Notes under the pieces: model-generated
Database searches by the model: none
What the model was told of the DNA's origin: nothing
Seen by the model: the letters and a program-made list of their open reading frames with translations, nothing else
Translations under genes and position numbers: made by a program
In this document: positions 19,701 to 22,893 of the stretch, one piece after another
Layout of the letters: each line of letters opens with the position of its first letter
Position numbering within the stretch: the stretch's first letter is position 1
Assembly (NCBI GenBank): GCA_010093995.1
Contig: ML992504.1
Span: forward strand, 682,001-746,000
Reading direction: 5' to 3'
DNA: 64,000 nt
Origin: Elsinoe ampelina
Taxonomy: Eukaryota

Positions 19701-20306
19701 GTAGCTGGAAGGCAATCGCACGGGCTGGTTTCGTGCCTCACCCGCAAACGGGATGAGGTGCAAGGTTGAGCGGGCATCACCGGGTTGGACCGAGAAGAGG
19801 CCCAGGATCAGTAGAGAAGGATTCCGTGATGAGCGTTTGTGTTTGAGATTGCGCGAGGTACGATTGAAAGACTGGCGTCTTTTGCGTAGGCCATTGCTTT
19901 ACTTGACTAGCACCTGAGCTCATACAGTATCATGCTCCAGGCATGCATGACACGAGAAAGCTGAGTCGGCAAGACATCGGCCGGCAGTTGATAAGAAGGA
20001 TGCAATCGTATCAGCAGGGCTGAGTTAGCATGCATCATGTCAGTGACCCTGCAATCCCATTTGACGTGACAGCACTGATCCCTGCAGGACCATGCCGGTT
20101 ACCGCCAAAGTGGATGTCGCCCGCGTGGACAATTGCGTGGCATTGATGAATGTTGAGTCAGCATGTGGAGAGGCTTCATCACTGAGATGAGTGTGCGAGT
20201 CGAAGGACTTGTGGCGGCCAAAGGAGTTGTAGATTGTGTTTGATGAGGTGCTGTTTCCAGGGGCTGAGGTGTGGAGTGCGGCTTTGCGGCAAAGACGACG
20301 TACCAC

Positions 20307-21941
20307 CAAGGGTCGGTGAATTAGGAGGTTGCCAGGGTAAATTGCTTACTTTTGTATACAACTTCTACCCCCTTATTCTTCAAAAATTCATAACTTTACC
20401 AACACTCATCCAAATGGCACGAATAAATAGCCAAATTGATCGTCAGACTATGCGCTTTACGTCACTAGAGCGCGGTTTAACAAAAAAGCGACGTAAACGA
20501 CGAAATGAGGACCAAGAGCTAGTACGTGAATGGCCGACTCCTACACGCGTGCGCGTTAAGACCTTATTCGAGAGCGGCACCTCACGCACTGAGATAAAAA
20601 GGATCACTAACGTGCCTATCCGGACGTAGCGCTCATAGACAATCCAGCCAGACTGTCGGCCTGGTAAAATACGTGAAGGGCCGTCCAAATTGATCGACTT
20701 AAGGACCCTCCGCCGCATGATCCACCACGTTACTAAATCCTTCGAGGATCGCCAAACTACGTGGGTATAGCTTGCTAAACTCTTCACAAATGGAGTTCAT
20801 CCTTGTACGGTGAAGAACGCTATAAACGAAGCTGGATATTATAAGTGCAAGGCTTGTCAGAAGAGCTGGTTACGGCCGGAGAACGTTGCTACAAGGGTGG
20901 CCTTTTGCTGTCGGTACCAATACCGCTCCTAGAGGTTCTAGAAGTTAGTACGCTTTACAGATGAAGTTCACTTCTCGGTGGATTCACAACGTGTAGCACT
21001 TGTCATTCGGAACGATTAGGAGCGTAACTGCGAGACTTATATCCAGTTTAACAAGAGGTTAAAGGGCAGCCAATTACACTGCTAGGCTATAGTCGGTTAC
21101 GGCTATAAGTCAGAGATAGTGTTCTTCGACTCTAACGATAAGTCTGAGAGCACTGCCTTTATCTACGACCGCATTAACACCGAAGGAATGTCACTAGAGC
21201 CAGCGGTAGAGACGGAGGAAGAGGAGCGCTAGTTACTCGGCAACGTAAGGCCTTTAACGTGTAAGCACCGCTATCACAATAAAGAGGCATGTAAGCATGC
21301 TTGCTGCAAGCCAGATCATCGTCCTTTAAAGGCCGCAGGCAACCTTACTTAGATATAGTACCTTACGAAGATCCTCTACCCTTATATTAAGCTAGCGTAG
21401 CTTAAGGCCAAGGGTAAGCACTATCTCTTTACTCTCCTCGAGGACAACGACGGCAGCCACGGCACTAGATCCAAGAACAACGTTGTAGCGAGATACAAGG
21501 CTTATCTAGAGAGGCAGGGTAGCTTTCACTGGTACGCTAACTACGCTTAGTCACCTGACTTTAACATCATCGAGAACGTGTAGAGGATCCTTAAACAGCG
21601 TGTCAAGAACTACCACTACACTACTATCGAGCAGCTAAAGGAGGCTATTGAGTTTGAATGGGAGCGCATCAGTCAGGACGAGATAAACAAGCTAGTAAAG
21701 ACAATGCTAGAGCGCATAAAGGAGGGCGTGAGGAGGAGAGGGCTACATACACCTTACTAAGCACCACAAATTGGCTAAAAGCATCAAATAACAACACCTT
21801 TTTTCAGCTTCATCTTTTTGAATTGATCAGATTACTCAAATGCTCATGAATCCCAATTATTCACCAAAAAATTGGTGTGAATCCGGGCTCAAAAAGTGCC
21901 AAGAAACGGGGGGCGGCAGTCTCCAAATTCACCGTCCCTTG
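20307..21941 (+). mobile_element. Full-length Tc1/IS630-mariner superfamily DNA transposon, RIP-inactivated
   Basis: Imperfect 27-bp TIRs: CAAGGGTCGGTGAATTAGGAGGTTGCC (20307-20333) versus the reverse complement of 21915-21941, CAAGGGACGGTGAATTTGGAGACTGCC (4 mismatches). AT/TpA-rich interior. Internal transposase frame. TA target duplication not visible. Confidence 0.9.
20414..21760 (+). pseudogene. DDE transposase pseudogene (448 codons, no frameshift, 13 premature TAG)
   Basis: Single frame with motifs RFTDEVHF, HC*AIVGYGYKS, GNLT*I*Y, LLEDNDGSH, *SPDFNIIENV*RILK, GLHTPY*. Confidence 0.93.
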
Positions 21942-22117
21942 CACGCTACCGATGAAACGTACACCATGCGAATTGGCTCAATTTCAGCCAAAGGGTATTC
22001 AATTTTGCTACCAATATGTACAGAAAGGTAGGATATATACATCTCATCATCCGAAATTGGCAAGTTGTCAGTGTTCTCCGGGTGATAAGCAAGTCACGTG
22101 TCCTGTTTCGCCACCAT

Positions 22118-22893
22118 TTATGCGGTGAGCTTAGTCTTGATAAATGCAAGAGCTTGTTGGCCGTACTTTGAGCCATAGCCTTGGTGAGTAGCCTGGTCAC
22201 TGCCCTTGCAGCAGTACGGATCGGCAGAGTCGCAGTAGGACTTGATCTTTGCGGCCTGAGCAGAAGCGCATTGGAAACCTGCCGGGCGAGGGGCGAACTG
22301 TAGCAAATGTCAGCAGCAATCCAAGACGACGTCGTCCATAAGCTGCTCCTTACTCCTTGCTGTGTGCAGGTGCCCACGTTGTAGGATAGGCCCGCAATGT
22401 AACGCGGATCACCCATGAAGATGGCGGCCTTGATTTGAGTTAGCGCCTTCGAGTTGATAGGGACGCCAGTGCTGCTCCAGCCAATATTGACGTCTGGCCC
22501 ACCACAGATCGCATTGTCACTGATCTGACCACCCTGTGAATAGCCGACGACGACGAGTTGGGTATTGGGGCATCTGGCGTTGTAGTTGTTGATGACCGAG
22601 GCGATGGTGTTGGTACCCTGGAGGGCGGACGACGCGTAGCTAGCACCTCCGCACGACGCCTGACCTCCGCATGCGGGGTAGTTGATTGCCTCTGCCGTCG
22701 AGCCTGGGTAGGCGTTGAGGACGAGGTTGACTACGACACCAGCCGTGCCGTATCCAGCAGGAGCGGTGGTCTCGCGGGCACCAAAGATGTGGATCTTCGG
22801 GCAGCTCTGACGCTCCTGAAGCTCGACAGGAGTCGCTGCTGCCAAAGCCGAAAGAGCAAGCACGGTGGTGCCGAGGTTGTTGAGGAGAAGCAT
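22118..22893 (-). CDS. Acetylxylan esterase (CE5, cutinase fold), secreted
   Basis: Signal peptide, FGARETT, GYSQGG nucleophile motif, MGDP. Intron 22298-22353, then SYCDSADPYCC..HQGY. Confidence 0.95.

Follow-up and report, generated by a model that had tools for sequence, protein, structure and literature searches.

A conserved Cys/His module inserted in the catalytic domain of a fungal Tc1-like transposase

Results

A transposon copy with an unexpected stretch of codons

Why should a Tc1-like transposase carry a Cys/His cluster in the middle of its catalytic domain? The question is raised by a locus of Elsinoe ampelina that lies in a 64,000-nucleotide stretch of contig ML992504.1 (assembly GCA_010093995.1, positions 682,001 to 746,000). 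We call this whole stretch the window; coordinates are those of the window, on its forward strand unless the reverse strand is named. Positions 20307 to 21941 hold a single Tc1-like transposon copy of the DDE_3 type, and within its decayed reading frame lie 70 codons that interrupt the RNase H fold. A preliminary description of the locus had compared these codons to the zinc finger at the C terminus of the meiotic helicase Mer3/HFM1. Our preferred reading, which we consider probable, is that a fungal Tc1-like copy killed by repeat-induced point mutation (RIP) belongs to a lineage that gained a knuckle insert of about 70 residues, and that the knuckle would bind zinc and contact nucleic acid near the loop that reads the target.

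The insert lies before helix alpha1 and is confined to a clade

In the RNase H fold, the insertion (residues D239 to A308, 21128 to 21337) separates a beta strand from helix alpha1. It directly follows GYKSEIVFF (residues 230 to 238, 21101 to 21127) and ends at GNLT (residues 309 to 312, 21338 to 21349); about 70 in-frame codons had been reported between these two motifs, and the number is exactly 70. In a profile alignment to the Sleeping Beauty structure 5cr4, GNLT starts the loop and helix that align with 'DGIM...QY', the segment just past the insert (GGN-L-T-x3-Y) pairing with these Sleeping Beauty residues.

Is such a loop usual? The preliminary description had stated that it normally spans only a few residues in Tc1-like transposases, and comparison with Sleeping Beauty agrees. 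Our family profile, A3, matches SB100X in two blocks, profile positions 142 to 220 and 298 to 436, so that 78 profile positions stand opposite 12 Sleeping Beauty residues. The insert-less homologue P0028 aligns to Sleeping Beauty unbroken. Hence, the loop is short in ordinary Tc1-like enzymes.

A homologue search of 5.8 billion proteins gave 1465 candidates and, from these, 31 homologues at an E value of at most 1e-3. Seventeen of the 31 are intact proteins of about 444 amino acids that are 43 to 56% identical to the window copy. We aligned the window copy with 21 of the homologues (alignment A1), leaving out the partial sequences P0019 to P0021, P0023 to P0027, P0031 and P0032. The insert is carried by 17 of the 21; P0022, P0028, P0029 and P0030 are without it. 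P0022 is a gene model from Zymoseptoria tritici IPO323 whose flanks are identical to those of P0021, from strain 3D7, which has the insert. What P0022 lacks is exactly the insert, the missing stretch being bounded by N and V at one end and by KK and GG at the other. The simplest reading is that this gap is probably an intron artefact of the gene model; real alternative splicing is the alternative.

A maximum-likelihood tree covering 23 full-length proteins groups the truly insert-less P0028, P0029 and P0030 in one clade (support 99/97), and only because of P0022 does the insert label need two changes on this tree. One gain of the insert, or one loss, is compatible with the tree as inferred from these proteins; its base is poorly resolved and its root unknown, so neither event is proven.

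An AlphaFold2 (AF2) model of the intact homologue P0004, built from a 21-sequence alignment, has a mean predicted local distance difference test score (pLDDT) of 72.7. In this model strand 232-234 precedes the insert and helix 309-330 follows it; the insert itself holds two short helices, 244-250 and 264-270. The second of these falls at an acidic segment of the insert, with low pLDDT.

No segment of the protein is better conserved than the Cys/His cluster

The insert is laid out as two acidic/hydrophobic segments followed by a lysine-rich Cys/His knuckle. The acidic run ETEEEER (21209 to 21229) is part of a conserved E-T-x2-E-E-x2-L-L-G-D, and T29, E32, E33 and L36 of this segment are invariant in an alignment of ten inserts over 83 positions (A2). 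The acidic/hydrophobic segments sit 8 to 40 residues upstream of the transposase finger. The cluster itself, CKHRYHNKEACKHACCK (21260 to 21310), is a RIP-damaged copy of C-x-H-x-C-x-[DN]-K-x2-C-x-H-x-C-C-K, a consensus with seven conserved potential metal ligands. Acidic run and cluster thus stand in the order and at the coordinates given in the preliminary description.

That description had staked its reading on the Cys and His positions being conserved in related elements, and they are: 25 of the 31 homologues match C-x-[HC]-x-C-x(4-7)-C-x-[HC]-x-C-C. Chance does not account for this. The six without it are P0009, in which the second His is Gln, and P0022, P0028, P0029, P0030 and P0032. In P0002 and P0036 the first His is replaced by Cys, which keeps a ligand at the position. 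Mean pairwise identity is 0.73 over the finger versus 0.51 over the whole protein, making the finger the best-conserved segment.

One ligand position of the window copy is occupied by Tyr287 (TAT, 21272 to 21274). Perhaps this codon had once been TGT, as already proposed from the letters alone? All 17 homologues that carry the insert have Cys here, and one G>A change, with the G in a T[G]T context, accounts for the Tyr. The neighbouring His288 is a different case: P0024 has CKHRCHNKEAC, the same variant as the window, and His288 is therefore not RIP damage.

The module recurs in other proteins

Searches with the insert against named families were largely silent. Pfam gave no family for the 83-residue insert at E values up to 10, a PDB sequence search gave only a chance match to uL16 (E 1.7), and Protein Atlas gave only unnamed Ascomycota clusters. 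The motif was encoded in none of the 80 metagenome loci that were kept, most of which are distant Tc1-like elements.

A profile search was more informative. The A2 profile, scored against 1.84 billion representative proteins, gave 54 matches at an E value of at most 1e-3, 20 of them at or below 1e-10. The strict pattern C-x-H-x-C-x5-C-x-H-x-C-C is found in 46 of the 54, and about 19 also match the transposase core beyond the insert. P0035 was considered as a further transposase and rejected, its 94 core residues being spurious Cys-driven alignments. P0063 (UPF0014/DUF1442), which is without the motif, is probably a chance match.

A Pfam scan covered 35 of the 54 matches. P0064 has an RVT_1 domain and then two motifs near its C terminus; P0082, from the 90% cluster of the array protein P0040, has four motifs and then RVT_1; P0066 has one motif beside an OTU domain. 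Many Pfam-less matches contain two to five tandem copies of the motif. A cluster look-up for ten profile matches returned no informative names. The preliminary description had not foreseen retroelement proteins and tandem arrays as common bearers of the module. Mobile elements of several kinds apparently share the knuckle as a common accessory. We conclude that the module formed by the insert is autonomous, conserved and specific to its clade.

Two of the Pfam-less finger arrays have something else in common. P0035 (about 30-115) and P0042 (about 590-672) share the block FHF..SR...KLRL...W.YFPD.HAA...C.....E..ACD, which is at the N terminus of one and the C terminus of the other.

Helicases of Mer3 architecture carry the same motif

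Does the resemblance to Mer3/HFM1, put forward in the preliminary description, stand up? At the level of the motif it does, since the unbiased profile search returned two helicases of the Sec63 type. P0070 (1168 amino acids) has DEAD, Helicase_C, SNRNP200_wHTH and Sec63 domains and the motif at residue 810, 90 residues past Sec63. In P0077, a fragment of 686 amino acids, Sec63 spans 2-277 and the motif is at 376. Both are single-cassette DEAD/Helicase_C/Sec63-type helicases with the same 16-residue motif downstream of Sec63, identical to the transposase motif in spacing and in non-ligand residues, and a single helicase cassette followed by Sec63 is the architecture of Mer3/HFM1. P0004 and P0070 share 17 of 34 residues (E 1e-8), and P0021 and P0077 share 22 of 49 (E 5e-9). 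When the two helicases are compared with each other, the best segment is the finger (18 of 28 identical, E 3e-10). Acidic/hydrophobic patches lie 20 to 45 residues upstream of the finger in both.

The language-model neighbours of P0070 include a cluster named HFM1, at 0.93 and with 215 of 256 features in common. The nearest solved structures to P0070 and P0077 are ASCC3 and Brr2, and a PDB search with P0070 had no HFM1 structure among its matches. A word-based search with residues 600-860 of P0070 returned P0070 alone. P0047 was tried as a further Sec63 helicase relative and set aside, as outside the finger it lacks any similarity to the Sec63 part of P0070.

Yeast Mer3 and human HFM1 are described, in the accessible text of one report, as having a 'Zn2+ finger' in the C-terminal region (PMC13003030). 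The same text places an acidic RPA-binding motif N-terminal of the finger in yeast and C-terminal of it in mammals; the yeast motif, DDSILDYL at 992-999, is just N-terminal of the finger (PMC13003030). The HFM1 variants p.C1157Y and p.Q1164X fall in the zinc finger motif, according to the part of a second report that is available (PMC8383409). As far as sequence comparison goes, the Mer3 link holds at the motif level. It extends to helicases of Mer3 architecture; for the yeast and human reference proteins we infer it, because the cited papers give no finger sequence.

The element is a Tc1-like copy inactivated by RIP

What kind of element carries the insert? Pfam places an HTH_Tnp_Tc3_2-like DNA-binding region, with a paired helix-turn-helix (HTH), at residues 109 to 169 (20738 to 20920). 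The window copy scores 30 bits, just below the cut-off of 31.5, and P0004 scores 39.3. For DDE_3 (cut-off 28.6 bits) the window copy scores 20.7 and the intact homologues 39.8 to 42.6. The catalytic triad is complete, each residue standing in an invariant alignment column: D183 in FTDEVHF (20960 to 20962), D344 in EDNDGSHG (21443 to 21445) and E387 in NIIENV (21572 to 21574). Foldseek with the P0004 model gave the Sleeping Beauty catalytic domain 5cr4 as the best match (E 5e-11, TMt 0.75), then Mos1, and profile A3 matches 5cr4 with an E value of 3.3e-30. An inverted-repeat pair search, with re-alignment, located terminal inverted repeats (TIRs) of 27 nucleotides at 20307 to 20333 and 21915 to 21941; the arms are 85% complementary and 1581 nucleotides apart. 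With triad, HTH and TIRs all present, the element belongs to the IS630/Tc1/mariner superfamily and is Tc1-like, with DDE_3.

The transposase itself is a pseudogene of 448 codons (20414 to 21760) with 13 in-frame stops. Every one of the 13 is TAG; there is no TAA and no TGA in this frame. Six of the TAG stops stand at columns where no fewer than 15 of the 17 homologues with the insert have Gln or Trp, as CAG>TAG or TGG>TAG changes would leave them. Considering all columns on which at least 15 of the 17 agree, the window departs at 20: one C>T or G>A change suffices for 15 of these departures, most of them in a CpA/TpG context, another single change accounts for three, and two need more than one change.

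Base composition tells the same story. G+C is 0.46 to 0.49 across the element versus about 0.54 around it. The usual RIP thresholds are 0.89 for TpA/ApT and 1.03 for (CpA+TpG)/(ApC+GpT). TpA/ApT is 1.42 in the element and 1.68 in the open reading frame (ORF), against 0.58 in the whole window and 0.58 to 0.67 in the flanks. (CpA+TpG)/(ApC+GpT) is 0.89 in the element and 0.78 in the ORF, against 1.24 in the whole window and 1.24 to 1.27 in the flanks. The raised first index and lowered second index are the signature of RIP, in line with the damage suspected at the outset. We conclude that the window copy is dead, inactivated by RIP-type C>T/G>A mutation. By blastn and tblastn, it is the only copy of the element in the window.

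Two further observations concern the transposase and the surroundings of the element. A possible second metal site consists of C145-x2-C148 (20846 to 20857) and C206-x2-Y209 (21029 to 21040). Its first half is K-C-K-A-C-Q, with C145 and C148 nearly invariant, and its second is a [C/H]-x2-C in the stretch after beta2. This candidate site is kept in the insert-less relatives too, and Tyr209 of the window is a further TGT>TAT change. Beyond the right TIR, the element adjoins the downstream end of a cutinase-family ORF (Pfam PF01083, E 2.1e-34) at 21946 to 22893 on the reverse strand.

Discussion

What might a knuckle do at this place?

In the mechanism that we propose, a Tc1-like lineage would have acquired an insertion of about 70 residues before alpha1 of the catalytic RNase H fold, and the cluster would bind zinc in the active transposase. 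The knuckle may project from the DNA-facing side of the catalytic domain, beside the loop that in Mos1 reads the flipped target adenine, and there contact target or flanking DNA, so modulating target capture or the stability of the transpososome. The Mos1 residue concerned is V214, which we presume, from the mariner sequence ...ETVNxxRY..., to correspond to Leu311 of GNLT in the window, two to three residues past the insert. In the accessible text of the Mos1 report, it is through backbone atoms that V214 contacts the flipped target base in an adenine-specific way (PMC5481204). There, V214 is placed in a structured loop, T-(V/I)-(N/T), where Tc1-family enzymes are said to be conserved (PMC5481204). 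Nucleic-acid binding suggests itself as the common denominator of the contexts in which the knuckle occurs: it is lysine-rich, a DNA helicase has it, so do ORF1-like arrays, and it stands next to reverse transcriptases. DNA contact as the specific function of the transposase knuckle is the likeliest reading, and one we hold tentatively, with doubt slightly ahead of belief.

Could the knuckle recognize a protein instead? It might be a protein-protein module that recruits a host factor, either RPA or a recombination or chromatin protein that the Mer3 tail meets. Yeast Mer3 has its acidic/hydrophobic RPA-binding motif just N-terminal of the zinc finger, as the accessible text of that report describes (PMC13003030), and acidic/hydrophobic stretches lie upstream of the finger in P0070, in P0077 and in the transposase insert. 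However, the acidic resemblance is of low complexity and carries no tool score, the same text assigns RPA binding to the acidic motif and not to the finger (PMC13003030), and tandem arrays beside reverse transcriptases suit nucleic-acid binding better. We regard host docking as unlikely, if still to be taken seriously. A bolder proposal starts from the same acidic/hydrophobic segments, which precede the finger in the insert, P0070 and P0077 as described for yeast Mer3: the insert may be a transplanted Mer3/HFM1 cassette, an acidic docking motif of the RPA70N type together with the finger, or the Mer3 finger may have been domesticated from array-bearing mobile elements. This is a long shot. If it were true, the transposase would dock on RPA-coated or branched DNA, and integration would be steered to recombination intermediates, or excision repair coupled with them.

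Nor need the insert recognize anything. Zinc knuckles often act as structural staples, and the surface loop that holds the insert can vary in length, so the insert might stabilize a transposase dimer or oligomer, or the catalytic fold, with no recognition of substrate or partner. Yet there are insert-less relatives, and the Sleeping Beauty fold does without the insert; moreover, the module stands free as a repeat in unrelated proteins, which argues for an autonomous binding unit. We strongly doubt the structural explanation. Convergence, in which a Cys/His knuckle of the same spacing arose separately in transposases, retroelements and helicases, is a different kind of objection. The shared core is only 16 to 17 residues, the helicase E values are marginal, the flanking similarity is weak, and Cys-rich motifs can inflate scores. 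Against this, pairwise identity is 45 to 50% over 34 to 49 residues, and the finger is the best-matching segment (18 of 28 identical) of the otherwise divergent P0070 and P0077. The Lys after the first Cys, the central [DN]-K and the Lys after CC also agree across contexts at 92 to 100%. Between 17 transposase instances and 74 others, the central Lys is present in 100% and 96%, the [DN] before it in 100% and 92%, and the Lys after CC in 100% and 95%, a comparison that is partly circular because the same profile picked the other instances. We think convergence improbable. The stretch might also not be protein at all, gene callers having read through a retained intron or a non-coding spacer; the pair of P0022 without exactly this stretch and P0021 with it speaks in favor of this. 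The stretch is nonetheless in frame and open in 17 intact homologues with 43 to 56% identity to the window, the best-conserved part of the whole protein lies within it, and its motif recurs in unrelated proteins. On this conservation we reject the intron explanation, to which we give almost no credence.

Several points besides that circularity weigh against our preferred reading, of a clade-specific knuckle that would bind zinc and touch nucleic acid. Zinc binding and DNA binding are both predictions. In the P0004 model most of the insert has low pLDDT (45 to 47 over 251-280, rising to about 70 at the cluster), and the insert modelled alone by AF2 reaches 57.8; this low confidence means that the fold of the insert and its orientation toward DNA are not established. 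Placement of the insert beside the Mos1 V214 loop is presumptive, made by way of the mariner sequence. The helicase matches of the profile search are just significant, with E values of 2.3e-4 and 8.1e-4 over 31 to 64 residues, and it is domain architecture and a language-model neighbour that point to Mer3 orthology of P0070 and P0077, both metagenome proteins. A word-based search of long proteins with residues 255-304 of P0004 yielded one candidate, which was not scored. Finally, a TA target-site duplication, the norm for Tc1-like elements, is not seen directly at either TIR end of this copy. A trinucleotide CAC borders both ends (20304 to 20306 and 21942 to 21944), and TA dinucleotides occur 4 and 5 nucleotides further out (20301 to 20302 and 21947 to 21948), so the true termini are uncertain.

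Relation to known transposases and fingers

The element shares with Sleeping Beauty 5cr4, a Tc1-like enzyme of the DD34E type, the paired HTH at the N terminus, the DDE triad on an RNase H-like fold and the short TIRs. Unlike Sleeping Beauty, it has some 65 to 70 extra residues with a Cys/His knuckle between strand and alpha1, and unlike enzymes of the DD34E type it has a D-to-E spacing of 38 residues in the intact P0004, which becomes 42 in the copy described here. Tc1/mariner transposases are, to our knowledge, regarded as compact and without accessory domains in the catalytic core. Accessory domains do interrupt the catalytic fold in hAT/Hermes, P element/THAP9, piggyBac and RAG1 (ZnC2/ZnH2), and that of RAG1 binds zinc. 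There the fold is interrupted past beta5, with the second Asp on one side and the Glu on the other, whereas the present insert lies between D183 and D344, before alpha1; the null Pfam result on the insert indicates no sequence similarity to them.

The fungal pogo/Fot1-like 'Trem' transposases offer another parallel, as members of the Tc1/mariner superfamily in fungi with a putative zinc finger, in the accessible text of their description (PMC2836289). The finger of Trem, from Paracoccidioides, is a C-terminal CCHC of the form Cx2Cx4Hx4C in the DDD branch, with a CENP-B domain (PMC2836289). Trem elements were considered as bearers of the same finger and ruled out, being pogo-like with a different motif at a different place (PMC2836289). 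Our literature search, with Repbase entries and supplements outside its scope, found no report of a zinc finger inside a Tc1-like catalytic domain and none of a Mer3 link; the family may already have a name. The 16-residue spacing and the non-ligand residues of the knuckle recur in P0070 and P0077, and by way of these two helicases the C-terminal finger of Mer3/HFM1 would be a close counterpart; transposase and helicase fingers alike are preceded by acidic segments. The Mer3 finger is in a disordered tail past Sec63, whereas the transposase finger is embedded in the catalytic fold. The available text of the literature found states no function for the Mer3/HFM1 finger.

A conserved metal-binding knuckle next to the TA-reading loop would make the clade that has it a natural retargeting experiment for gene-transfer enzymes in wide use. 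An autonomous, repeated module that is found in transposons and in retroelement proteins defines a domain family absent from Pfam. The corresponding finger of HFM1 bears variants linked to infertility, in the part of that report available (PMC8383409), and the small proteins that bear the module are a tractable route to what the finger binds.

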